This document shows, piece by piece, positions 4,528 to 56,432 of a stretch of DNA of 64,000 nucleotides. Positions within the stretch are counted from its first letter, which is position 1. The number at the start of each line of letters is the position of its first letter. The position numbers were made by a program, and so were the translations under genes. Source of the stretch: Candidatus Micrarchaeota archaeon (GTDB lineage: Archaea; Micrarchaeota; Micrarchaeia; Norongarragalinales; Norongarragalinaceae); assembly GCA_037444485.1 (NCBI GenBank), contig JBBIMI010000003.1:1461-65460 (forward strand), given 5' to 3'. Under the pieces are notes generated by a model that had not been told where the DNA came from, did not search any database, and saw only the letters and a list, made by a program, of their open reading frames with translations.

Positions 4528-5553
4528 ATGAAGCTACAGACACCAAAATACACGCCAAAACACACGCCAAAATGCAGTAAGTGCGGCAAACGCGAAGCAA
4601 TAATCGAAATACGTTACGAAATACGTTACGCTAGCGCAAACTTCTGCAAAAACTGTTTTCTAGAGTATTTCGAGAAACGCGTGAAGAAAGCGAATTACGA
4701 CTTTAAACTCGCGCGACGCGGCGACGTAATCGCTGTAGGTGTCTCGGGTGGAAAAGACAGCACTGCAATGCTTCACGCACTCTACAAACTCGCGCGCGAA
4801 ATCGGCGAAATCGTTCTCGTGCCAGTTCTCGTGAATGAAGGCATCCGCGGATACCGCGACGAGAGTGCCGAAAAAGCGCGCGAAGCCTGCGAGCGCTTCG
4901 ACTTAAAACTTCACGAGTATTCCTTCGAGAAAGAATACGGTTTGACTATGGACTCTGCGACTGCTTTCGAGAAGAGAAAGCATCCAGCTTGTTCTTACTG
5001 CGGCGTTTGGCGCAAGGCGTTGTTAAACAAAGCCGCGCTTGAAGTTGGAGCTAACAAGCTCGCAATCGGCCACAATGCCGACGACACGGTGCAAACTTTT
5101 TTAATGAATTTAATGCGTTGCGACATGCCGCGCTTGACGCGCTCTGGCGCATTGAGTGGGGTTGCGGAACGCGAAGGCTTCGTGCGCCGCATAAAGCCGT
5201 TGGTTTACGTTCTAGAACGCGAAACCGCGCTTTACTGCGAATTACTGGAATTGCCTTACTACCGCGGTTCGTGTTCCTACTCTACTGAAGCAATGAGGGG
5301 GGTAGTGAAATACTTTCTGAACGCCGCCGAAGAAAAACACCCGGGCACTAAACTCGCGTTATTGAATTCTTTCCTTGCGCTGAAGAACGAATTAAGCGGA
5401 AAAAGCGGATTGAATCCAGTGTACTCGAATGAATCGTTGAAAAAATGCGGCGAGTGCGGCGCGCCTTCGGCAAGCGCATTATGCCGCGCTTGCGTTTTCT
5501 TGAAAGAATTGAAGGCTGAAGGCTTTCAATTCACAACAGCCCGCCGCGAATGA
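4528..5553 (+). CDS. ncsA: tRNA 2-thiouridine synthetase, PP-loop ATPase of NcsA/Ncs6/TtuA family with N- and C-terminal CxxC zinc fingers
   Basis: SGGKDS PP-loop motif, CSKCGK...CKNC N-terminal and CGECG...CRAC C-terminal Zn fingers, GHNADD motif; N-terminus has short tandem peptide repeats (KYTPKHTPK, IRYEIRY). Confidence 0.8.
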   Translation: MKLQTPKYTPKHTPKCSKCGKREAIIEIRYEIRYASANFCKNCFLEYFEKRVKKANYDFKLARRGDVIAVGVSGGKDSTAMLHALYKLAREIGEIVLVPVLVNEGIRGYRDESAEKAREACERFDLKLHEYSFEKEYGLTMDSATAFEKRKHPACSYCGVWRKALLNKAALEVGANKLAIGHNADDTVQTFLMNLMRCDMPRLTRSGALSGVAEREGFVRRIKPLVYVLERETALYCELLELPYYRGSCSYSTEAMRGVVKYFLNAAEEKHPGTKLALLNSFLALKNELSGKSGLNPVYSNESLKKCGECGAPSASALCRACVFLKELKAEGFQFTTARRE

Positions 5554-10146: not shown

Positions 10147-10330
10147 GCCCCTGTAGCTTAGTGGTTAAAGCGCCTGTCTTGTACGAAGCTTTTCTTTCAA
10201 AAAAGAAGTTGAAAAAAGAAGAAAAGAAAAAAAGTTTTGAAAAAAGAAAACAAAAAAGAGAAAAGAAAAAAAAGAAGAAAAAGCGTTTCAGGAAAACAGG
10301 AGAACGAGAGTTCAAATCTCTCCAGGGGCT
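10147..10330 (+). tRNA. tRNA-Thr(UGU) with 111-nt canonical-position intron (10184..10294)
   Basis: Manual fold: acceptor GCCCCTG/CAGGGGC, D-arm GCTT-AGTGGTTA-AAGC, anticodon stem CCTGT/ACAGG, loop CTTGTA|intron|A, T-arm GAGAG-TTCAAAT-CTCTC, discriminator T; intron is purine-rich low complexity. Confidence 0.75.
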
Positions 10331-10505: not shown

Positions 10506-13500
10506 TTAAACGCGTTTCGCGTACTTTAACCTAACCAACGCGATGCTTGCAGCAAGCGCGGCGAGCATTGCGAGAAACGCTAACAACTCGCGCGGCCAGC
10601 TTGGCAGCGCGAGCGGACTTACGCCCCCGCCTGCAGTCGTAGTCGGCGCTGGTGGAGCGAAAAAGTTGTCTTGCGGCACGCCGCGAACGTTGCCAGCTGC
10701 GTCGCCGCTGAAAGCGATTCCTTTTTGCGCGAATTCAGGCGACAACGGAATGTCTTGACCGTTGTAAACGTTTATCGCGCCAGTAGTTGGATTGAATGTT
10801 AGAATTCCGTTCTGTCCGCGCGCAGCAAGCAACGGCAAGAATTCGCTTAAGCCGTCTGGCCCCTTTGCTTCAACCCAAGGCCCGCCGTCTGGGCCCTGCT
10901 TGAAACCGAAAACAAAGTTGCCTTTATCTGTTGGCACTACGAGATTGCCGTTCGCATCACGGTACGGCTCGCCAGTAATTCTGTAGTCCGTCGCTTGACC
11001 TGTTTTCTTGTCAATCACGCGTAGAATCGGGTTTCCCTGCGCGTCTTTCGTGAAAGCGTAAATGTGGTCTTTCGTCTCGAAAGACTGTATTCCGCCAGCG
11101 CCTTGAATTTGTTGAAGTGCTTGCTGTAAGCCGGACTCCATCCCGGTTTTTTCAGTAATGCTTAACTTCGGCGTGGTAGAACCATCCGCATTCTTCGCAG
11201 TTCCAACAACCCCGAAATCCTTGATTGCTTGCACGCCAGAAGCAGACAATACGTAAACAAACAAGTACAAGCGTTTGTTAACAGTGTCGAACTCGATTTT
11301 GCCTTGACTGCCTATAATAGTCTTAAGAAACCCTATTTCTTGGCCGCTCACGCTGCTGCCAGTAGGCCCACTCAAAAACACGCGTCCATCGCTAGAAACC
11401 TGTAACGTGGAGCCCAGCAACTGCGTTTGCTGGAGGGTGTTCTTGTCATCAATGCTTGGCGCGTTGACTTCAGTTCCAATCTTTCCGCTTGTCGAGGAAA
11501 CGCGCGTGAAACTAATTTCGTTGCCTGAAATTGAAGTGACGCCTTTGTCTGTGACTACGGTTGAAACCCTTCCCAAGAATGGCGTCAAATCGTCGCTTAC
11601 AATCCGCTTCGTTAAAGCACTCAACTGTTGTTTCAAGCAATCAATCGCGTTACAACTAGTCGCGAAAGAAATCCTGCCGTCGTACAAGATGTTTAACAAC
11701 GTTCCAGCGCAGCCGGCAATGTTTGCTTCAAACAACTTGTTCGGTAGAATAACACGGCCGTTCTCTTGCGTCATCAAGCGCGCGAGCGCGCGCAACTTCC
11801 AATCGTCTGAATCGAATTTTTGCAGGGTGTTTCCGTTCTTGTCGTAAAACGCTATTCCGTCAGTTGCGCTCAAACGCACTGCTTTGTCGTTAGACAAGTA
11901 GTTTTCTGCAAACGGACAACCCTTACCTGCAAGCTGGTCGAATAGTCCGCCTTTCGCTGAAAAAACGCTTTTCTCGATTTGCAGGTAGTAAAGCGCTTCA
12001 GGCTGCACGAAGCCTTTTTGGTCTTTCAAACCAGCTTTGAAATTCAAGATTTCAGTCATTTTAGAAAGCGGGTTTTCCTTTTGTTGGAACGCTTGTTGAG
12101 CTGCAGTCCCGATTCCCAACTGGCTTAAAACGTCTGTAACTGGCTGGAGTTTTTCAGCAACGCCTGAAACTTTTTTCTTGACCGCTTCAGGCAGCTTTTG
12201 GTAAGTCAAAACCTTGTATTCCGGGTCGGCGCAGGAACTAACGTACTGCTGTGCTTTAGAACCGAAATACCATTGGAAAGCGAAAGGCGTTTGAATGTTG
12301 TTAATAAAATTCAGGGTCCCGATTGGGGCCTTAACCCAAGCTGACTGCGCCAACGCTATTTTCTTGAATAACGACAACGAAGGCAACACCATGAGAGCCC
12401 AACCTGCAATCGTGGAAGCGGCGTACCCTGTTTTAAAGTGGGCTAACGTCGCTTTATCGCATTCTTGTCCTTTATACATGTACGGGTCGAACGAAACGAT
12501 GTAATCGTTTACCAGCAGAAACGTCGTTATTCCGAGAATGCTGGGTGCACCTACTGTTTGAGCCACGCCCCTCGCGAAAATAAATTGCGGAATTAGAGTC
12601 AAGACGTAAGAATAAAGTATTGCCTGGTTTTTAGTGTTCACAACCACGTTCGGAAAAGTGTTGTAGAGCTTGAACTGCAGGCTCGTGTACTTATCGTTTT
12701 CCGAAAAGCTGGAAACGTCCTCGAAGTTGGTCGCGTAAGAATCGCCGCGCCAACTAGTCTTGATTTTAATGTTGTCTGCTGTGCTGATGCTGGTAAAAGA
12801 ATTGCTTGAATCGATGCCTTTAGGGTTATTAATCAAGAAAACTTTTCCGGCGGAAAACGCCTTCGACGGCGCTGAAAAACTGGTTCCGAAAGTGTTTGCA
12901 ACAGATTCCAAAAGCCGACCGGTGCCGAACAAATCGCTTGCCTTCCTAAACTTGCCAGCGATTTCCGGGTGATTCACGTAAAGCTTGGCGAACGAATCTT
13001 TCGCTGGAGTAGAACCCTTTAAACTAAAGAAAACGCGGTCATTAATGGAATACAAAATCCTCGCTGGCCCGAGCCAAGTCGCACCCAAAATCAAGCCCAA
13101 ATAAACGCGCCTGCCCGCGTATTTGGCGATGTCGGCGTAAGCGTCAGCGCGCTTTTTCAGCAATTTAGTCTCAGCTTCAAGTTTTTTAACCGGGTCTTCA
13201 ACGCTTTTATAAGCCTGCATGCTGCGCGCGACTTGGCCGACTTCCGTCTGGAATTCTGCAGGAATCGCTCTGCCAACGTTGCCAGTAACTCCAAAAAGCT
13301 CGTCCAACTCTTCTCCAGTCAAGTAAAGGTTTCCTACCGCGAGCTTATCCCTGACTTTCTTTGCAGACTCACTACCAAGCCTGTTCGTGACCTCTCTCGT
13401 AAATTGAATGTCCAACGGATTCACTCCAGTTGGGTTAGTTCTAAGCAAGTTTTCCAGATCCCTGTACGACTGACTCGTTTCACTGAAAAACTGTGCCGCC

Positions 13501-14609
13501 CTAGTTCCTTGAGCTTGGGAAGCCCTCAACTCGCTGAGTTCTGCTTTTGCCGCAGCCAATTCTTCAGAAGCAGCCCTCCCAAAGTGAAGCGAACCTACTG
13601 CGAGAATAGTGCTAACCAAGAGATCGTACTTGTTCCAAGTGCTTGAATACGAAACCCAATCCTCGTAGAAAGAAGGAATCAGCATGTTTGCTCCGTTCGC
13701 ACCCAAATTCATGAAGCCAGTGACTTCGCTTCCAACCAAGTGTTGTTCTGAATCAAGTTGGTCAACTTCTTCACCGGAAGCTGACGAAACGAATTTTCCT
13801 TCCTGGCATTGTTTTGAAGTGCTGCTGCAATAATTCAAGTCTTTGTCTAACAACACAGCGTAAGTTACTCGCCCTTGAATGTTTTCGTTGTCTAAAGCGC
13901 ATTGTTTGGGATTCATTTCTTGCGCTTTCAGCAAGTCGCACAAGCTTGCTTCGTTTCGCCCCGGGGTTCCGCCCGCCACAACGATTTTCAAGTCCCTGCA
14001 TTTTCCAGGCTTTTCTTCAGGCGCTATTCCTGTAACTCTGCCTGGAAGTAAACCCATTTTTTGTAGTTGTTCGACAACAAAGTTTTTCGGTTTGCCGACT
14101 TGTTGAGCGTATTTTTCAGCGACGCTTACTGGAATGCTCGCAGTAGTCTTCACGCGTCCTTTGTCGTCGAAGTACTTGTCCAAGCAAGGCTTTACTTCTT
14201 CAGCCTTCAAGCTTTGACAATACTCTCTCAAACGCAAGTCTTTAGCTGCTTGTTGTTCGCTCACGCCGAGGATTCCGGCGACTTGAATCAAACTAATTTC
14301 TTCACCGCCGATTACAGCGCCCTGCACCGAAGGCGGAAAACGGTGTTTTCCCGCGTCCTGCATGTTCTTCAACGCTTCAGCAAACGGCAAGAAATTTATT
14401 TCGTTAGGCGAAAAACCCAGCGTGTTCGCCCACAACGATTGCACTTCCTGCGGAGTCATTTCAGAAACTCTACAGAAAACGCTGGCTTGAAGCGAAACCG
14501 CTTGCTGCGCTGAAGCTGGTTGAACTGGTTGAGCGAAACCGTAAGGAGCGAAGAGTTCCAGGAAAAGCAAAACCCCTGTTGTAAAGGCGAAAAACTTGAG
14601 TTTCTGCAT
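10506..14609 (-). CDS. giant (1367 aa) secreted/membrane-anchored cell-surface protein, hypothetical
   Basis: N-terminal signal peptide MQKLKFFAFTTGVLLFLELFAPYGFAQP; several internal hydrophobic segments; C-terminal TM anchor LLAFLAMLAALAASIALV followed by basic tail RLKYAKRV; no enzymatic motif recognised. Confidence 0.7.
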   Translation of the reverse strand: MQKLKFFAFTTGVLLFLELFAPYGFAQPVQPASAQQAVSLQASVFCRVSEMTPQEVQSLWANTLGFSPNEINFLPFAEALKNMQDAGKHRFPPSVQGAVIGGEEISLIQVAGILGVSEQQAAKDLRLREYCQSLKAEEVKPCLDKYFDDKGRVKTTASIPVSVAEKYAQQVGKPKNFVVEQLQKMGLLPGRVTGIAPEEKPGKCRDLKIVVAGGTPGRNEASLCDLLKAQEMNPKQCALDNENIQGRVTYAVLLDKDLNYCSSTSKQCQEGKFVSSASGEEVDQLDSEQHLVGSEVTGFMNLGANGANMLIPSFYEDWVSYSSTWNKYDLLVSTILAVGSLHFGRAASEELAAAKAELSELRASQAQGTRAAQFFSETSQSYRDLENLLRTNPTGVNPLDIQFTREVTNRLGSESAKKVRDKLAVGNLYLTGEELDELFGVTGNVGRAIPAEFQTEVGQVARSMQAYKSVEDPVKKLEAETKLLKKRADAYADIAKYAGRRVYLGLILGATWLGPARILYSINDRVFFSLKGSTPAKDSFAKLYVNHPEIAGKFRKASDLFGTGRLLESVANTFGTSFSAPSKAFSAGKVFLINNPKGIDSSNSFTSISTADNIKIKTSWRGDSYATNFEDVSSFSENDKYTSLQFKLYNTFPNVVVNTKNQAILYSYVLTLIPQFIFARGVAQTVGAPSILGITTFLLVNDYIVSFDPYMYKGQECDKATLAHFKTGYAASTIAGWALMVLPSLSLFKKIALAQSAWVKAPIGTLNFINNIQTPFAFQWYFGSKAQQYVSSCADPEYKVLTYQKLPEAVKKKVSGVAEKLQPVTDVLSQLGIGTAAQQAFQQKENPLSKMTEILNFKAGLKDQKGFVQPEALYYLQIEKSVFSAKGGLFDQLAGKGCPFAENYLSNDKAVRLSATDGIAFYDKNGNTLQKFDSDDWKLRALARLMTQENGRVILPNKLFEANIAGCAGTLLNILYDGRISFATSCNAIDCLKQQLSALTKRIVSDDLTPFLGRVSTVVTDKGVTSISGNEISFTRVSSTSGKIGTEVNAPSIDDKNTLQQTQLLGSTLQVSSDGRVFLSGPTGSSVSGQEIGFLKTIIGSQGKIEFDTVNKRLYLFVYVLSASGVQAIKDFGVVGTAKNADGSTTPKLSITEKTGMESGLQQALQQIQGAGGIQSFETKDHIYAFTKDAQGNPILRVIDKKTGQATDYRITGEPYRDANGNLVVPTDKGNFVFGFKQGPDGGPWVEAKGPDGLSEFLPLLAARGQNGILTFNPTTGAINVYNGQDIPLSPEFAQKGIAFSGDAAGNVRGVPQDNFFAPPAPTTTAGGGVSPLALPSWPRELLAFLAMLAALAASIALVRLKYAKRV

Positions 14610-15393: not shown

Positions 15394-16293
15394 TCAAGTT
15401 TTTCTTCCAAACAGCGCGCCCCAATATGCTTTAGAATAAGCAGCGCCGATTACCTTCAACAAGCCGACTGTTTGCGCGTAATTCTCGCGCGTTTGTCTTT
15501 TTTGTTTAATCAAGCCATTCAACTTCAGCCCTGCCTCGCGCAATCCAGTAATGCGTTTTTCAACGCGTTCCTCTAACTTTTTCTTCTTGTAGTCAGGGAG
15601 TTTCATAAAACGCAGTTGCAACAGCGAAAGCGTGTAAGGACTTATTGAATGAATAAAATAAATTTTTTTGACGCGAGCCGGGCCTATTGCTAGAGCAAAG
15701 CGGGTTTCATAGTAAGGTTTTAAAACGCTTGCCAAAACGCGTTGCTTGAACAAGTCTAAACGCGCTCTCCGCAATTCTCTCTTCATTTCTTTTATCGCGT
15801 CAGCCAAAAACTTTTTGCGTTCCTTGAAGTCAAGCGCCCCCAACTTTTGCAGTTCCTCTCTCTTGATTTCCTCGACTTTTTGAAGGTGTTTGCTAGTAGT
15901 CGGAATGCCTGCCAACGCGTTTGCTGCGGCTGCGATGGTTGCGTACTGTCTTCCAAGCGACTTTACCGTATTCTCGAAATCCTTCACTTCCTTACGCGTT
16001 TCTCTCTTAGAAGAATAGAATTCCAACAACTGTGTTACTGAATGAATTTCTCCGCTAACGATTTTAGAAACAAGCGTGCTTGTAGTAAAACCCTTTAGTT
16101 TGTTTTGGGCTTGCTTTAACTTGTTGTTGAATTCCGTAAGGGTTTCACGGACGGCTTCATGCAACGCTTGAACTCCGGCGTTGACGTGCATCGCGCGCTC
16201 AAGCGTTTCCTCTAAAGGCATCCGCACACCCAAAAAATTATTCGCACGGAAATTAAAAAACATTTGCGTTCGCGTAACGCGAGCATCAAGCAA
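15394..16293 (-). CDS. scpA: segregation and condensation protein A (kleisin ScpA)
   Basis: Immediately downstream of and 8-bp overlapping smc; ~299 aa with coiled-coil middle and C-terminal winged-helix-like region typical of ScpA; start uncertain. Confidence 0.7.
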   Translation of the reverse strand: MLDARVTRTQMFFNFRANNFLGVRMPLEETLERAMHVNAGVQALHEAVRETLTEFNNKLKQAQNKLKGFTTSTLVSKIVSGEIHSVTQLLEFYSSKRETRKEVKDFENTVKSLGRQYATIAAAANALAGIPTTSKHLQKVEEIKREELQKLGALDFKERKKFLADAIKEMKRELRRARLDLFKQRVLASVLKPYYETRFALAIGPARVKKIYFIHSISPYTLSLLQLRFMKLPDYKKKKLEERVEKRITGLREAGLKLNGLIKQKRQTRENYAQTVGLLKVIGAAYSKAYWGALFGRKT

Positions 16294-20959: not shown

Positions 20960-21096
20960 TGAACTGGATTTCGCAAGACGGTTTATAAGCGGTTTTGCAA
21001 CACCAGCCTGCCGGTGAAATTTTCTTTAGAGGGAGAAAACGCCGTTCACCGGCAGAATACGGGAAGCGCGGTTGGTTTGCGGTTTTTGCGTGAAAG

Positions 21097-21495
21097 TCAG
21101 AGTTCTTCCTTGACTGTGGTGAAGCAGGCGAGAGTGAGCGTTCTCGCGACTCCGGGCAGCGCGCGCAGCTTGTCGATTACGAGTTCCCCGATTTCCTGCA
21201 TCGAAGCGCCGCGCACTTTCAACAGCAAGTCCCACTCACCAGTTATTATGTGCGTTTCGAAAACCCCGGGCAGCAACGAGATTTTGCAGGCGAGCTCGCG
21301 CTGGGAAACAGGGCCTTGGGCGTAAGCGACGAGGATAAAGGCGGTGGACGGTCGCCCAAGCTTTCCGTAGTCAGGCGCTACGGTGAAAAGCTTGATCACA
21401 CCACCTTTCTTCAGCTTGCGAATTCTCTCGTGGACTGTAACGCGGGGAATCCGCGTTTTCTTTGCTATTTCGGTGGTGGTAGCACGAGCAAGCAA
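21097..21495 (-). CDS. Lrp/AsnC family transcriptional regulator
   Basis: 132 aa; N-terminal HTH (TTEIAKKTRIPRVTVHERIRKL), C-terminal RAM domain (FILVAYAQG...THIITGEWDLLLKVR). Confidence 0.85.
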   Translation of the reverse strand: MLARATTTEIAKKTRIPRVTVHERIRKLKKGGVIKLFTVAPDYGKLGRPSTAFILVAYAQGPVSQRELACKISLLPGVFETHIITGEWDLLLKVRGASMQEIGELVIDKLRALPGVARTLTLACFTTVKEEL

Positions 21496-21514
21496 AGAAC
21501 ACGTTTTCAGCCTG

Positions 21515-22039
21515 ATGGAAGACTTTCTGGCGGGAGCGGTAAAGTACGTGAAAAAGGAGTGCCGAGAAGAGCTGAGTGCATTTGGCCGCGAGCTACGCGA
21601 TGTGAAGACGCCTTTCGCTAAGTTTACGACTCACGAGCTGGAAGAAAAGTACGGAAGCTGCTGGGAAGACGCCGCGTCGAGAGAAGTTGAACAGCCGTTT
21701 TGGGCTTTGTGTCACAAGCGCGAGTTTTACGACAAGGAAGACCCGCACGCGCCAGGGCATTACTTGAACTACGACTTGATCTACCCTGAAGGCTTTGGAG
21801 AAGGGCTTTCAGGCGCGGAACGCGAACACGATTACAAAACGATAATCAACAAAATACAAAAAACCGGCTTGAATGAAGCTCACTACGAGCCTTACTTGAA
21901 AACGGCGGAAAAAGGACTTGTCGCTTCCGCCGGAGGCGGCTTCGGAGTCGAACGCTTGGTGCGATTCCTCGCGGGTGCAAAGCACGTCGGCGACGTGCAG
22001 CTGTTCAGGCGGGTTCCGGGAGAAAAAATCGCGGTGTAA
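21515..22039 (+). pseudogene. class IIb aaRS-like fragment (AsnA / AspRS-AsnRS catalytic-core C-terminal ~175 aa only)
   Basis: Ends ...NYDLIYPEGFGEGLSGAEREH...GLVASAGGGFGVERLVRFLAGAKHVGDVQLFRRVP = class II motif 3 region; N-terminal two thirds of an AsnA/AspRS core absent (upstream DNA encodes Lrp on opposite strand). Confidence 0.45.
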
Positions 22040-40354: not shown

Positions 40355-40431
40355 AACCTTGAAGTATCTTGAAGTAAAAACACCTCTAAGCAAAAATTAT
40401 TCTAAAAAATTAAAAGAAACAGGAAAGCGAG

Positions 40432-40545
40432 TGGGCCTGCGGGGATTTGAACCCCGGCCTTCCAGTTCGCCCAGCAGCGCGAGCCGCAAGGCGGCTCGTG
40501 CTTCGTATAAGACTGGCACTCTAGACCAGGCTGAGTTACAGGCCC
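40432..40545 (-). tRNA. tRNA-Ile(UAU) with 38-nt canonical-position intron (40468..40505)
   Basis: Manual fold on minus strand: acceptor GGGCCTG/CAGGCCC, D-arm ACTC-AGCCTGGTCTA-GAGT, anticodon stem CCAGT/ACTGG, loop CTTATA|intron|A (anticodon TAT), T-arm CGGGG-TTCAAAT-CCCCG, discriminator A; intron begins CGAAGC like the tRNA-Thr intron and contains hairpin GAGCCGCcttGCGGCTC. Confidence 0.7.
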
Positions 40546-40627
40546 GCTTGCGCCAGCTTTGTTTAAAGCGAGCTTTACTATAGCCTTACTGAAACTAAAG
40601 TAAAACTAAAATGTTATATTATTATGC

Positions 40628-41149: not shown

Positions 41150-41689
41150 TCAACCGAGTTTTATTAATTCTATATTCTCGTATTTCGGCCCATTCGGCGT
41201 GAGCGTGCTTTTCTTGAAAGCGAGTTCTCGCACCAGCGTCCTGCCGAAGACGGTTTGCGAATGCTTTTCCTTCAGCGCTCGCAGCGCGTCAAGATTCTTT
41301 GGTTTTTTGACTCGCGCGAGCGAAACGTGTCCTTTGAAGCCGCGCTCGTCACGTGCGCCAAGCGCGTTCGCGAGTTTCTCTTGCAGTTCAAACAATTCTG
41401 GCGAAAGAGATTCAGCGTAAAAAACGCGGATGAACCGCTCGTTCGGAAGAAAACCGAGTCCCTTGACTTCTAGAGAAAAAGGTTTTGCATTCAAACAAAC
41501 TTTTTTTATTGCTGAGATTTTCTCGCGCGCTTGGTCTTCAGTCAAATCGCCGAAAAACAAGAGGGTAACGTGCAGTATTTGCGGGTCTACGAAAACAGCT
41601 TGCACTCCAGCGTTCTTCGCTTCCTCGATCACTCGCGCGAGCGCGTCACGCGTTTCTTCACTTAATTCGATCGCCAAAAAACAACGCAT
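41150..41689 (-). CDS. thpR: RNA 2',3'-cyclic phosphodiesterase (ThpR/LigT 2H phosphoesterase)
   Basis: Two H-x-T/S-x motifs: LHVTLLF and GHVSLAR; 179 aa. Confidence 0.8.
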   Translation of the reverse strand: MRCFLAIELSEETRDALARVIEEAKNAGVQAVFVDPQILHVTLLFFGDLTEDQAREKISAIKKVCLNAKPFSLEVKGLGFLPNERFIRVFYAESLSPELFELQEKLANALGARDERGFKGHVSLARVKKPKNLDALRALKEKHSQTVFGRTLVRELAFKKSTLTPNGPKYENIELIKLG

Positions 41690-42463
41690 TCAACGCAGCC
41701 TCTTTCTGTTGAAAAGCACGTAGAACAACAAAAAAACAGCTAGGAAGACTAGAATGGTTTTAATGGTTTCGTTATTGACGATTTTCTTGCCGCGGTCGAG
41801 CAATTCGCTTAAAGTGTTTTCTTTAATGTTTTCTTTAAGCAGTTCTGATGGCTGGAGGCTAGAAGTCGGTCGAGTCGGCGTGAGAGCGTCCTGTAAACCG
41901 ATTTCTTGCTTGACGAACGCGATTACTCGCTGCAAGTCGCTTGCAGATAATGAAAAGCATTGGTTCGGCGCGTTGCAGCACTGCGTGATTGAAAAATTGT
42001 TTGGGTTTTTCTTTACCGCGTCGCCGACTTTGTCTTCGAAAGGCTTGTGGCAGCCTTCATAATCCTCGTTAACGATCTCGTGCATCACGTCAACAGCGTC
42101 GCTTAAGTAGTGGCTCGCCACCGCTAAACTAAAGATTTTCGCGCAACCTTCCTCGCGACTCGCATTCACAACCAGCCTGCGGGCTTTCTCGACAGCAGGA
42201 CAGTCGAGTTTTTGCGGACAATAACTTGAATCGTTTACCGGGCAAACAGAATTATAACAATGGTGGTTTGCGAAGTCTCTAGAAACGTTGTCTGGAAAAA
42301 CGCTGCCTTCATCCGCAGCGCCAGCGCACACAGGCGACTCCAACAACAAGGGCGCGAGCGCTTGACGCGCGATGTAGCGGTGCGCATCCCAATCCCAAGC
42401 GTTTGCAAAACCCGTGCTCACGAAAAACAAAACGAAAACAATCGCCGCAAGCAAAAACTTCAT
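41690..42463 (-). CDS. secreted, C-terminally membrane-anchored zinc-dependent hydrolase of the phospholipase C / S1-P1 nuclease superfamily
   Basis: Signal peptide MKFLLAAIVFVLFFVSTGFANA|WDWDAHRYI (W..H start of mature domain), central HYLSDAVDVMH (cf. PLC HYLGDxxQPMH / P1 HFIGDxxQPLH), Cys-rich, C-terminal TM ILVFLAVFLLFYVLF + NRKRLR. Confidence 0.6.
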   Translation of the reverse strand: MKFLLAAIVFVLFFVSTGFANAWDWDAHRYIARQALAPLLLESPVCAGAADEGSVFPDNVSRDFANHHCYNSVCPVNDSSYCPQKLDCPAVEKARRLVVNASREEGCAKIFSLAVASHYLSDAVDVMHEIVNEDYEGCHKPFEDKVGDAVKKNPNNFSITQCCNAPNQCFSLSASDLQRVIAFVKQEIGLQDALTPTRPTSSLQPSELLKENIKENTLSELLDRGKKIVNNETIKTILVFLAVFLLFYVLFNRKRLR

Positions 42464-42489: not shown

Positions 42490-42790
42490 TTAATTAGTTA
42501 CAGAAATGCTTGAAATAACTTTAATGCGGAAAAAAAGAATTGAAAAAAGAATTGAAAAAATGAAAAAAAGCTGAAAAAAGTTGAAGAACTGAAAAATAGA
42601 ACTAAAGAAATTGGGAAAAGAGTTGAAAAAAAACTGAAAAAACAAAGGAAAACTGAAGAAAAAGGAAAACTGAAGAAAAAGAGGATCGAAGAAAAACTGA
42701 AAAATAAAGAAAAACAGGGTTAAAAAAAGGAATTAAAAAAAGGAATTAAAAAACTGGGGGGAAATTGGAGGAAAAGAGAGTTGGAAAAAA
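42490..42790 (+). repeat. ~300-bp polypurine degenerate tandem repeat tract (gaaaaaa / ctgaagaaaaag units)
   Basis: read directly in divergent intergenic region. Confidence 0.75.
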
Positions 42791-43659
42791 GTTGGTTTTT
42801 TGAAATGAAGCGCGTTAATCGAATCCAAAACACGTTGATTGTTTTCACGTTGTTTCTCTCGTTCTTTGCGCCCAGCGTTTCCGCCAGCAATCTTACAGTA
42901 ATCGAACCAGTCTCGCAAACCGCAGGCGCAGGCGACGTAGTAGACTTAGGCGTTGTTGGGCCCGGACAAAAACTCGAGGTTGCAGCGACTCGCGCGAGCG
43001 GCGAGAAAGCGAAAAACATCGCTTTCGAGAAGGAAGCTGGTTGGGACAGGCTTTTCGTGATTCCGAGCGAACTCCCGCCAGGCTGGAGTTTCGAGGACAG
43101 CAAGTGGTACGAAGAACGAATGCACGTTTTCGTGACTGTCTCGCGCGACGCTGAAGACGGAATTTATTTCTTTAAAACGCGGGCTTTCGACGAATACGAA
43201 GGCGTTCCAGCGCTTGAAACCACTTTCAAAGTCACGGTGTCCCGCGACTTGCTTGAAGCAGGGTTGCTCGAAAAAACAATTTCAGTTGGCGTCGAACAGC
43301 CGGCTTTGTTTTACTTGCGCTTGAAAAACAAAAGCAGCGCGAGCGACGTTTTCGAAATCAAAGTTAGCGGGCCTCCTTCCACCGGCGTTGGAGTCACGCG
43401 AAAAGCGTACTTGCGTCACAACAGCGAAGACTTTATTCCAATCGAGTTGTTTGAAGGCGAGCGAGGCGAGTACGCGGTGCGTTTCGACGTCAAGTCGCTT
43501 TCGAGCGACGCGATTAACGCGCGCGAGTCTGCAACGCTACTCGTGTTCACTTCGCTACTGCACGACATGCAAGCGGTTTCGCATGGAGTGCTCTTGTTTC
43601 CGACTGCTGAACAACCAGTTTACGCGCTCTTGGGCTTGATTGCGGAAATCTTTTCTTGA
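42781..43659 (+). CDS. secreted hypothetical protein (likely true start ~42805 at MKRVNRIQ...)
   Basis: Signal peptide NTLIVFTLFLSFFAPSVSA|SN; beta-rich; C-terminal hydrophobic segment; no family recognised. Confidence 0.5.
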   Translation: MEKSWFFEMKRVNRIQNTLIVFTLFLSFFAPSVSASNLTVIEPVSQTAGAGDVVDLGVVGPGQKLEVAATRASGEKAKNIAFEKEAGWDRLFVIPSELPPGWSFEDSKWYEERMHVFVTVSRDAEDGIYFFKTRAFDEYEGVPALETTFKVTVSRDLLEAGLLEKTISVGVEQPALFYLRLKNKSSASDVFEIKVSGPPSTGVGVTRKAYLRHNSEDFIPIELFEGERGEYAVRFDVKSLSSDAINARESATLLVFTSLLHDMQAVSHGVLLFPTAEQPVYALLGLIAEIFS

Positions 43660-43760: not shown

Positions 43761-45263
43761 ATGCGCAAAAAATTTACTAAAACCGAACTAGAAAAATTAA
43801 AGCGCGTTTTCGCGGGCGAACGCGGGTTGAAGAAAGTTCCGCGTAACTCTGATTTCTTGAGAGTAGTCAGCGTAACTCCCCGCGAACGCAAGGAACTGCG
43901 CACGCGGCCAGTGCGTTCGCTGAGCGGGGTCAGCGTGATTGCAATCATGACGAAGCCAATGCCGTGCCCGGGCGCTTGCGTTTACTGCGTGGACAGCCCG
44001 CTCGCGCCCAAGAGTTACACTGGCTTTGAACCAGCTGCGCTGCGCGCGCGCCAAAACAATTTCGACGCGTTTCAACAAGTCGAATCGCGCTTGCGGCAAT
44101 TGCGGGAAATCGGGCACGAGCCAAGCAAGTGCGAACTCGTCGTAATGGGCGGGACTTTCAACTCGCTGCCGCTCGCTTACCAAAAGAGTTTCTTGAAGAA
44201 GGCGTTCGACGCTTTCAACGAGGTTGAAAGCCCTTCGCTCGAGCAAGCGCTTAAGGAAAACGAGCGGGCGCGATACCGCGTTGTCGGCGTGACTTTCGAA
44301 ACGCGGCCAGACTGGTGTTCAAGAGAGCACGTCAAGCAAATGCTTTCTTACGGCGCTACGCGCATCGAACTAGGCGTGCAGTGTCTCGACGACTCTGTTT
44401 ACGAAAAAATGCTACGCGGCCACAGCGTAGAGGACGTCGCCAATGCGACGCGCGAGTGCAAAAACGCTTTCCTTAAAGTAGGTTTTCATTGCATGCCAGG
44501 TTTGGTTGAAAGCGAAGCGCGGGACGAACGCATTTTCGCGAAAATCTTCAGCGACGAACGCTTTCGGCCAGATATGCTTAAACTTTATCCAGTCCTAGTA
44601 ATGCCTGGAACAGAATTGTACGAGCAGTGGCAACGAGGCGAATTCAAGCCGTACGACGAAAAGCAAGCGGCACGCGTTATAGCACGCATGAAACGCTTGG
44701 TGCCGCGTTACTGTAGGATAATGAGGGTTGAGCGCGACATCCCCACTAACTTGATTGCTGCAGGAGTCAAGAAAAGCAACCTCAGAGAACTCGCAAACGC
44801 GGAAATGCGTGAACGCGGTTGGAAGTGTTCTTGCATTAGATGCCGCGAGGTTGGCTTAAAACAATTGAAAGAAGGAATCAAAATCGATTTCAGCAAGCTC
44901 GAACTCAACAGCTTAAATTATCAAGCGAGCGGTGGGACTGAAGTGTTCCTCAGTTTTGACGACGCGGAGACGGACGCGTTGGCCGCATTCCTGCGTCTTC
45001 GCGTTAACGCTGACGGAGTTGTTGGAGTGCGAGAACTACGCGTGTTCGGCGAGCAAGTCGCAGTCGGCGAAGAGCCGAAAGCAAACAGCATGGCAGTGCA
45101 ACACAAGAGCTTGGGCCGCAAGCTGCTTTCACGAGCAGAGGAAATCGCGAAAAACGAGTTCGACGCGCGAAAACTCTTTGTTTTAAGCGGCGTTGGAGCA
45201 AAACATTACTACAGGAAGCTCGGCTACCGCGACGACGGTTTCTACGTCTCCAAAAAACTGTGA
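43761..45263 (+). CDS. elp3: Elongator protein 3 homolog (radical SAM + GNAT tRNA U34 carboxymethyl-modification enzyme)
   Basis: 500 aa; N-terminal Cys cluster MPCPGACVYC (radical SAM), TIM-barrel core, C-terminal GNAT acetyl-CoA domain (...VLSGVGAKHYYRKLGYRDDGFYVSKKL). Confidence 0.9.
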   Translation: MRKKFTKTELEKLKRVFAGERGLKKVPRNSDFLRVVSVTPRERKELRTRPVRSLSGVSVIAIMTKPMPCPGACVYCVDSPLAPKSYTGFEPAALRARQNNFDAFQQVESRLRQLREIGHEPSKCELVVMGGTFNSLPLAYQKSFLKKAFDAFNEVESPSLEQALKENERARYRVVGVTFETRPDWCSREHVKQMLSYGATRIELGVQCLDDSVYEKMLRGHSVEDVANATRECKNAFLKVGFHCMPGLVESEARDERIFAKIFSDERFRPDMLKLYPVLVMPGTELYEQWQRGEFKPYDEKQAARVIARMKRLVPRYCRIMRVERDIPTNLIAAGVKKSNLRELANAEMRERGWKCSCIRCREVGLKQLKEGIKIDFSKLELNSLNYQASGGTEVFLSFDDAETDALAAFLRLRVNADGVVGVRELRVFGEQVAVGEEPKANSMAVQHKSLGRKLLSRAEEIAKNEFDARKLFVLSGVGAKHYYRKLGYRDDGFYVSKKL

Positions 45264-55503: not shown

Positions 55504-55613
55504 AGCCCCGTCGTATAGTGGTCAAACAGCTTTCCAGCAAAAAAAAGAGAAAGCTGGACTTCGTATGCGGGCCTCTGGAGCCTGAGACGGCGGTTCGAAT
55601 CCGCCCGGGGCTA
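55504..55613 (+). tRNA. tRNA-Gln(CUG) with non-canonical 37-nt intron in D-loop (approx 55526..55562)
   Basis: Manual fold: acceptor AGCCCCG/CGGGGCT (A1-U72 as in archaeal tRNA-Gln), discriminator A, D-stem GTAT/GTAT with terminal G-U pairs (as in archaeal tRNA-Gln GUGU/GCAU), D-loop AGTGGTCAA then inserted ACAGCTTTCCAGCaaaaaaaagagaaaGCTGGACTTC hairpin, anticodon arm CGGGC-CTCTGGA-GCCTG, T-arm GGCGG-TTCGAAT-CCGCC. Confidence 0.65.
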
Positions 55614-55661
55614 CTCTCTTTTAAAAAAAACGCTTGCGTAACAATTCTCAGGTGCGGCGCA

Positions 55662-56432
55662 ATGGGCGTTATCCACGTCAAGAAAAAGAGTTTCCGCTTA
55701 AACAAGTACTGGGTTTTGCTTGTAATCGTAGTCATAGTGCAGGCAATCGCGGTAACAGACTTCGTACTACTCGAAAAAAGACCGTTTCCAGACGCTTTGT
55801 TTGAAAGCATGTGCACCGCGTTGTACGTCGACTGCGCGAGCGGCGCGCTGGTCACGAAAGTAGTGCACGTGTTGCTCGGGTTGACGACGATGGCCGTGCT
55901 TGCCGTAGTGATTACTGAAGGAGTTGATTACTTGATTAAAAACACTTTAGAGGGGAGGGGAATGAAAAAACAAATCAATGCGATGCGCAACCACATCATC
56001 GTATGCGGTTACGGAGAACTAGGCAAGACAGTTTGTCAGACTCTCGCCAACGAAAAAGAAGACTTCGTCGTTATAGACATTGACGCGAAGACAGCAAAAA
56101 AAGTTGCTGACGCTGGCTTTCCAGTAGTTGAAGGCGACGCTTTGGAAGCAAAAACGCTTCAGAAAGCCGGAATCGCGCGCGCCAGGCGCGTTGTAAGCGC
56201 CTTGAACTCTGATTCCTCCAACGTCTTCCTCACGCTCACTGTGAAAGAATTAAACCCGAGGGCAGCAGTCGCAACTCGCGCTTACAGCGAGGACGCCGTT
56301 GGCAAGCTCCACCGCGCAGGCGCCGACGTGATAGTAATGCCAGAGATAATCGGCGGTTTAGAGCTCGCGAAAGAAATACTGGATTTAGAGGACAGCTACG
56401 CAAGCAAACTCGTTTCAAGCAAAAAGAAATAA
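55662..56432 (+). CDS. TrkA-N (RCK, NAD-binding) domain membrane protein, putative K+ transport/channel component
   Basis: Two N-terminal TM helices then Rossmann IIVCGYGELGKTV...VVIDID; ORF-track start trimmed to ATG 55662 to avoid tRNA-Gln overlap. Confidence 0.65.
   Translation: MGVIHVKKKSFRLNKYWVLLVIVVIVQAIAVTDFVLLEKRPFPDALFESMCTALYVDCASGALVTKVVHVLLGLTTMAVLAVVITEGVDYLIKNTLEGRGMKKQINAMRNHIIVCGYGELGKTVCQTLANEKEDFVVIDIDAKTAKKVADAGFPVVEGDALEAKTLQKAGIARARRVVSALNSDSSNVFLTLTVKELNPRAAVATRAYSEDAVGKLHRAGADVIVMPEIIGGLELAKEILDLEDSYASKLVSSKKK

Follow-up and report, generated by a model that had tools for sequence, protein, structure and literature searches.

The isoleucine tRNA gene of the window, the whole 64-kb stretch of DNA that was analysed, is very probably a functional gene for the minor, AUA-reading isoleucine tRNA of a member of the Micrarchaeota, standing in for the tRNA-Ile2(CAU)/TiaS system. 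In most archaea AUA is decoded by tRNA-Ile2(CAU), in which TiaS modifies C34 to agmatidine. In the proposed pathway, the 114-nt precursor would be transcribed from the minus strand, a splicing endonuclease would cut both 3-nt bulges of the intron motif, on the 3' side of A37 and the 5' side of A38, and the exons would be ligated before addition of CCA. The resulting 76-nt tRNA with a UAU anticodon would be charged with isoleucine and is predicted to decode AUA, and it would replace the agmatidine-modified tRNA-Ile2(CAU) in this lineage. The positions of the gene, its parts and other features of the window are collected in Table 1.

Table 1. Positions of the isoleucine tRNA gene, its parts and other features discussed in the text, numbered along the window.
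Feature	Position	Strand	Description	Basis
Pre-tRNA-Ile(UAU) gene	40432..40545	-	114 nt, CCA not encoded	Rfam RF00005, hand cloverleaf
5' exon	40506..40545	-	tRNA positions 1-37	BHB enumeration, Rfam insertion site
Anticodon U34-A35-U36	40507..40509	-	ATA on the plus strand	Sequence; ARAGORN on spliced form
Intron	40468..40505	-	CGAAGCACGAGCCGCCUUGCGGCUCGCGCUGCUGGGCG, 38 nt, canonical 37/38 site	BHB enumeration, sequence
3' exon	40432..40467	-	tRNA positions 38-73	Hand cloverleaf, BHB enumeration
Bulge-helix-bulge (BHB) motif	40467..40511	-		BHB enumeration
Upstream AT-rich elements	40562..40582	-	Possible archaeal TATA box	Sequence reading
Downstream T-rich tract	40404..40427	-	UUUCCUGUUUCUUUUAAUUUUUU	Sequence reading
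tRNA-Thr(UGU)	10147-10330	+	111-nt, very A-rich intron at 37/38, strict hBHBh'	
tRNA-Gln(CUG)	55504-55613	+	37-nt D-loop intron between about positions 21 and 22, non-canonical site	
LigT/ThpR RNA 2',3'-cyclic phosphodiesterase	41150-41689	-		TIGR02258, 113 bits
Elp3 (tRNA U34 modification)	43761-45263	+		TIGR01211, 613 bits, cut-off 350
NcsA/TtuA-like PP-loop tRNA thiolase	4528-5553	+		Profile scores below cut-offs
1367-aa ORF	10506-14609	-	No Pfam or NCBIfam match	
tRNA-synt_2 ORF	21383-22039	+	C-terminal part only of class II synthetase core	Profile positions 114-306

Gene structure, splicing and anticodon

The gene is matched over the full length of the Rfam tRNA model RF00005 on the minus strand (40545..40432, 56.5 bits, E=1.6e-9), and with a cloverleaf scoring above the gathering threshold of 29 it belongs to the tRNA family. 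All four arms are intact, comprising an acceptor stem that reads GGGCCUG/CAGGCCC with discriminator A73 and is followed by U8-A9, a D stem ACUC/GAGU closing an 11-nt loop that contains GG, an anticodon stem CCAGU/ACUGG, a variable region of 5 nt and the T arm CGGGG-UUCAAAU-CCCCG. The 5' exon is 40 nt long for positions 1-37 because of the 11-nt D-loop. The conserved nucleotides U8, G18G19, U33 and GUUCAAAUC are all present, and the fold of the 114-nt gene is better than that of every dinucleotide shuffle (z = -3.99). Upstream of the mature 5' end, TATAGTAAA at -37..-29 and TTTAAA at -22..-17 are AT-rich elements that possibly constitute an archaeal TATA box, and the T-rich tract downstream of the gene is likely an oligo-T transcription terminator.

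Archaeal tRNA introns are excised by cuts in two 3-nt bulges on either side of a 4-bp helix, the hBHBh' motif of the Marck and Grosjean type. Enumeration of all bulge(3)-helix(4)-bulge(3) arrangements across the 114-nt gene returned a single one that yields a tRNA-sized product keeping all four arms, and no alternative position gives a tRNA. Cuts after A37 and before A38 take out 38 nt and leave a 76-nt tRNA, and the Rfam alignment places an insertion of 39 nt straight after CUUAUA. The central helix pairs C32-U33-U34-A35 (40511-40508) with UGGG of the intron (40473-40470) in all four positions, as C32-G, U33.G, U34.G and A35-U, two of the pairs being G.U. It is flanked by the 5' bulge U36-A37-C (40507-40505) and the 3' bulge C-G-A38 (40469-40467). 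The 5-bp anticodon stem serves as the outer helix h, and the inner helix h' reads as G-C, an A.G mismatch and then A-U, G-C and C-G. The gene thus has the hBHBh' structure of a canonical archaeal tRNA intron, and within the intron there is a GC-rich hairpin of 8 bp. No splicing endonuclease gene is encoded in the 64-kb window.

The spliced anticodon loop is C-U-U-A-U-A-A and the anticodon of the mature tRNA is UAU, with the U34-A35-U36 of an AUA decoder. For the spliced 76-nt sequence ARAGORN draws a standard cloverleaf and calls tRNA-Ile(tat). As an indirect indication of charging by IleRS, the tRNA has A35, U36, A37 and A73, and its G3-C70 pair rules out alanine identity. Each structural claim of the sequence-only reading is borne out by these results: an intron-bearing tRNA gene occupies exactly the interval proposed, on the minus strand in the Rfam match; the intron follows position 37 in both the BHB enumeration and the Rfam alignment; the unique BHB splice and the ARAGORN call on the spliced sequence both give UAU; and the isoleucine isotype is returned for the spliced sequence and for intronless orthologues alike.

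The cloverleaf-plus-BHB fold has an energy of -51.3 kcal/mol, compared with -52.8 kcal/mol when the cloverleaf arms are fixed and -59.1 kcal/mol for the unconstrained optimum. As the BHB fold is not the energy optimum, the motif is plausible and not thermodynamically dominant. A native fold that does not dominate is common among tRNA precursors. The unconstrained minimum, a non-cloverleaf fold in which CUGG of the intron competes for the anticodon stem, was set aside as uninformative on the native fold.

The automated tRNA calls conflict with this assignment. Default ARAGORN detects none of the three tRNAs of the window because it does not handle introns; among the orthologues it detects the intronless ones and misses those at loci L002, L006 and L108. 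In intron mode it reports c[40431,40545] as tRNA-Ala (tgc) i(38,38), and the mature tRNA would carry a UGC anticodon and read alanine codons if the intron indeed lay 3 nt upstream of its canonical site. This reading is hardly credible, since it places the cuts within the central helix and not in the 3-nt bulges, whereas the Rfam insertion falls after A37 and the loop of intronless orthologues is CUUAUAA. Furthermore, for L002 and L006, relatives with exons identical to those of the window, intron mode returns Ile(tat) and Thr(tgt), respectively, so that its call depends only on the intron sequence. It also miscalls the Thr(UGU) gene as Ser(tga), though a long variable arm is absent. Neither the G3.U70 pair of alanine tRNAs nor, in this mode, a consistent orthologue anticodon is found, the acceptor stem having G3-C70, and the Ala(tgc) call was rejected as an artefact of intron placement. 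The expectation that ARAGORN would return the proposed anticodon accordingly held for the spliced sequence and failed in intron mode for this technical reason.

The other two tRNA genes of the window are also intron-bearing. The spliced 73-nt product of the tRNA-Thr(UGU) gene forms a perfect cloverleaf, and its intron begins with CGAAGC, resembling the start of the isoleucine intron. For tRNA-Gln(CUG), the Rfam match is confined to the last two thirds of the gene at its 3' end (55557-55613; 31 bits), and the remainder was resolved by hand as a 4-bp helix GGUC/GACU with bulges AA|A and UC|G and an inner 8-bp helix CAGCUUUC/GAAAGCUG. To judge from these pairings, its splice motif is a relaxed BHB without an outer helix. 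A TrkA_N ORF (55518-56432) overlaps this gene, and its real start is therefore probably downstream. The value of these genes for annotation is that default ARAGORN misses all three, intron mode mislabels Ile as Ala and Thr as Ser, and Rfam truncates Gln.

Decoding of AUA with and without TiaS

Across 43 genes of the window that were identified with confidence, 137 of the 723 codons for isoleucine are AUA (19%; 9.3 per 1000 codons), and 41 of the 43 genes contain it. With AUA used to this extent in the window, the organism needs an AUA decoder. No match to the TiaS families of Pfam and NCBIfam was found in the larger ORFs of the window, and a tblastn search of the 64 kb with the A. fulgidus TiaS, a query identical over all 420 residues to PDB 4rvz_Z and 3amt_A, gave a best E of 2.4. 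TiaS was likewise not found in the 120 loci of tRNA relatives. A permissive Rfam search of the 64-kb window returned the three tRNAs only, with a CAU anticodon in none. Compared with the archaeal tRNA-Ile2(CAU)/TiaS system, the window gene would serve the same function of decoding AUA as isoleucine, and differs in having a genomic U34 in place of a C34 that depends on an essential modifying enzyme.

The closest published precedents are found in the same phylum. In ARMAN-2 (Candidatus Micrarchaeum acidiphilum), ARMAN-4 and ARMAN-5, tRNA-Ile(UAU) is reported to be present, with neither a tRNA-Ile(CAU) nor a TiaS homologue (Fujishima et al. 2011, PMC3239211), and the inference of TiaS-independent AUA decoding in the sequence-only reading agrees with these data. 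The ARMAN-2 pre-tRNA-Ile(UAU) has a 25-nt intron at 37/38 within a strict hBHBh' motif, and the epsilon2 splicing endonuclease of the same organism cleaves it at the correct sites in vitro (PMC3239211). It shares with the window gene the phylum, the UAU anticodon and the canonical 37/38 intron, whereas the introns differ in length (25 nt vs 38 nt) and cleavage in vitro is a result for the ARMAN-2 gene only. By analogy with this literature, we infer that an epsilon2-type endonuclease would cleave the precursor and that TiaS and tRNA-Ile(CAU) would be absent from the organism of the window. A search of the literature on TiaS, TilS or UAU anticodons in DPANN or CPR organisms returned nothing past the 2011 ARMAN paper.

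An alternative is that the tRNA-Ile(UAU) is functional and redundant, with TiaS and tRNA-Ile2(CAU) encoded elsewhere in the genome. The window covers about 64 kb, and bacteria with both systems are known, some Lactobacillus species keeping tilS together with a tRNA-Ile(TAT) gene (Taniguchi et al. 2013, PMC3575796). Such redundancy is nonetheless quite improbable here, given that neither TiaS nor a CAU tRNA is found in the 64-kb window, that ARMAN-2, -4 and -5 are reported without both (PMC3239211) and that DPANN genomes are small and reduced. Replacement of the tRNA-Ile2(CAU)/TiaS system remains the preferred reading, and it has parallels outside the phylum. Among 167 complete archaeal genomes, tRNA-Ile(UAU) was found only in Nanoarchaeum equitans and Korarchaeum cryptofilum, and the gene of K. 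cryptofilum is also intron-bearing (PMC6000648). These archaea, which are without TiaS, resemble the organism of the window in their genomic UAU anticodon and differ in phylum. In Mycoplasma mobile, the U34 of tRNA-Ile2(UAU) is unmodified, and the tRNA works because IleRS, through a Trp to Arg change, and the ribosome have adapted to it (Taniguchi et al. 2013, PMC3575796). The likeness in this case would extend to a reduced genome, loss of the C34-modifying enzyme and reading of AUA by UAU, whereas the M. mobile tRNA is bacterial and its gene intronless.

Relatives, conservation and distribution

Relatives of the gene were collected from a GTDB scan of one genome per species with a pattern for the 5' half as far as the anticodon loop, GGGCNNGTANCTCAG-N6-10-GAG-N7-CTTATA. 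At least 120 species representatives match, those among the matches listed comprising 49 DPANN archaea and 71 bacteria, and these lineage counts represent a sample, not a complete tally; the genes of ARMAN-2, N. equitans and K. cryptofilum are absent among the matches listed. The archaeal groups among the matches listed are Micrarchaeota, Woesearchaeota, Iainarchaeota, Aenigmarchaeota, Pacearchaeota, Nanoarchaeia and Anstonellaceae. Of the 49 archaeal copies among the matches listed, 36 have extra sequence inserted directly 3' of position 37. Parsing of 34 intron-bearing archaeal relatives among the matches listed demonstrated, in 23, a central helix paired in four of four positions and formed by UAAG, UAGG, UGAG or UGGG. 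The remaining 13 of the 49 archaeal copies among the matches listed, several from Micrarchaeota, are intronless, and all six of the intronless archaeal copies run through ARAGORN, again with Micrarchaeota included, are called tRNA-Ile(tat).

Evidence for function comes from two relatives, the Micrarchaeota species representatives at L002 and L006, whose exons are 100% identical to those of the window gene. Their introns (40 nt and 49 nt, respectively) are unlike that of the window in sequence but retain, near their 3' end, the UGGG paired with C32-A35, and their flanking genes are syntenic with the window at 38-67% protein identity. The shared order is eIF6, L31e, a dsDNA-binding protein, S19e, Rpr2, NUDIX, the tRNA, a CDP-alcohol transferase, LigT, a hypothetical protein, Elp3 and Cdc6. 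That the exons are identical while introns and neighbouring genes have diverged indicates purifying selection on the exons and therefore a functional gene. A decaying or non-expressed pseudogene, which the weak central splice helix with its two G.U pairs might suggest, is highly improbable in view of the exon identity across three species-level relatives with diverged introns and flanking genes, the intact arms with their conserved nucleotides and the regular use of AUA codons. In the D stem, A10-U25 in the clade of the window takes the place of the G10-C25 seen in 46 other archaeal copies among the matches listed, and is a compensatory change.

An apparent additional T-arm intron, following GTTCAAA or GTTCGAA, accompanies the one at 37/38 in several DPANN loci (L026, L048, L052, L054, L068, L069, L074, L077, L092, L093, L109, L111 and L115), and these genes are not closed by the simple parser. 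All 71 bacterial tRNA-Ile(UAU) pattern matches among the matches listed (loci L003-L121) are intronless. They belong mostly to CPR/Patescibacteria, including Saccharibacteria, Peregrinibacteria/Peribacteria, Uhrbacteria, Doudnabacteria, Magasanikbacteria and others, with further matches, also among those listed, in Ignavibacteria, Myxococcota and bins labelled Gammaproteobacteria. Within the literature library searched, no paper linking CPR with UAU or tilS was found.

The intron-bearing tRNA-Ile(UAU) is already known, ordinary for Micrarchaeota and common across DPANN. The sequence-only reading had described a genomic tRNA-Ile(UAU) as rare and reported for Nanoarchaeota and Korarchaeota; those reports exist (PMC6000648), but the gene is the published norm for Micrarchaeota and occurs in at least 49 DPANN genomes. 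The impression of rarity arises because the 167-genome survey contained only the N. equitans and K. cryptofilum examples. Having been described in Micrarchaeota in 2011 and being present in at least 49 DPANN genomes, the gene therefore marks a DPANN-type translation system and is nothing unusual.

Possible modification of U34 and the genomic setting

In eukaryotic tRNA-Ile(UAU) the anticodon is pseudouridine-A-pseudouridine and is formed on the intron-containing precursor. The window gene resembles this system in its UAU anticodon, its 37/38 intron and the pairing of anticodon bases with the intron in the precursor, whereas the archaeal intron is dispensable, 13 of 49 copies among the matches listed being without it. 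An intron is thus not always present in archaeal tRNA-Ile(UAU) genes as it is in the eukaryotic type, although one lies at 37/38 in about three quarters of the DPANN genes among the matches listed, and an obligatory, eukaryote-like intron-dependent modification is unlikely to be general. Haloarchaeal tRNA-Ile U34 mutants, which carry 5-cyanomethyl-U, decode AUA > AUG > AUU, are poor IleRS substrates and slow the growth of the cells (PMC3895270). As these mutants read AUG and charge poorly, a plain UAU decoder would need a co-adapted IleRS, ribosome or modification.

The window encodes Elp3 and a NcsA/TtuA-like thiolase, and an xm5U-type modification of U34 is therefore possible, with nothing tying either enzyme specifically to tRNA-Ile(UAU). 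The Elp3 gene lies 3.2 kb from the isoleucine tRNA gene, with the same spacing in L006, and the two adjoin only in the window and L006 among the matches listed. This adjacency is therefore ordinary synteny of close relatives, and a general linkage of Elp3 to tRNA-Ile(UAU) was rejected, the neighbourhood being confined to the closest relatives. It is improbable that the 37/38 intron, which pairs with C32-A35, is required for the UAU anticodon to be modified in an intron-dependent manner, or that U34 is modified by the nearby Elp3. The LigT/ThpR gene lies 600 bp from the tRNA gene and is syntenic in L002 and L006, and its product could conceivably help to process splicing intermediates.

The remaining content of the window is that of an archaeal genome with a G+C of about 49%. 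The GatD protein shares 81-85% identity with proteins that NCBI lists under Candidatus Micrarchaeota and about 55% with many others from Micrarchaeota and further DPANN groups. An origin in Korarchaeota, which the G+C content had suggested, is rejected by these protein similarities. Archaeal housekeeping genes include those for ribosomal proteins L15e, S19e, L31e and L11, eIF6, an aIF2B-like protein and Spt5, and the window also encodes FtsY, GatD, GatE, Trm1, SMC, FtsZ, Cdc6 and A-type ATPase subunits. A Logan assembly of run SRR11582170 contains a 9.5-kb piece of the window sequence. In addition to the 1367-aa ORF, those at 15394-16293 (299 aa, just upstream of SMC), 41690-42463 and 42781-43659 are equally without a Pfam or NCBIfam match. 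The ORFs at 21014-21325 and 21250-21621, upstream of the tRNA-synt_2 ORF, sit in other frames, and a frameshifted or mis-assembled AspRS, AsnRS or LysRS gene may lie here.

How a UAU anticodon avoids reading AUG is a question for the lineage as a whole and not for this locus in particular. If an intron- or Elp3-dependent modification did operate, these archaea would achieve a eukaryote-like discrimination between AUA and AUG without TiaS. With little discovery value of its own, the gene confirms the DPANN origin of the window and fits a reduced, TiaS-independent reading of AUA like that described for the ARMAN genomes in 2011.
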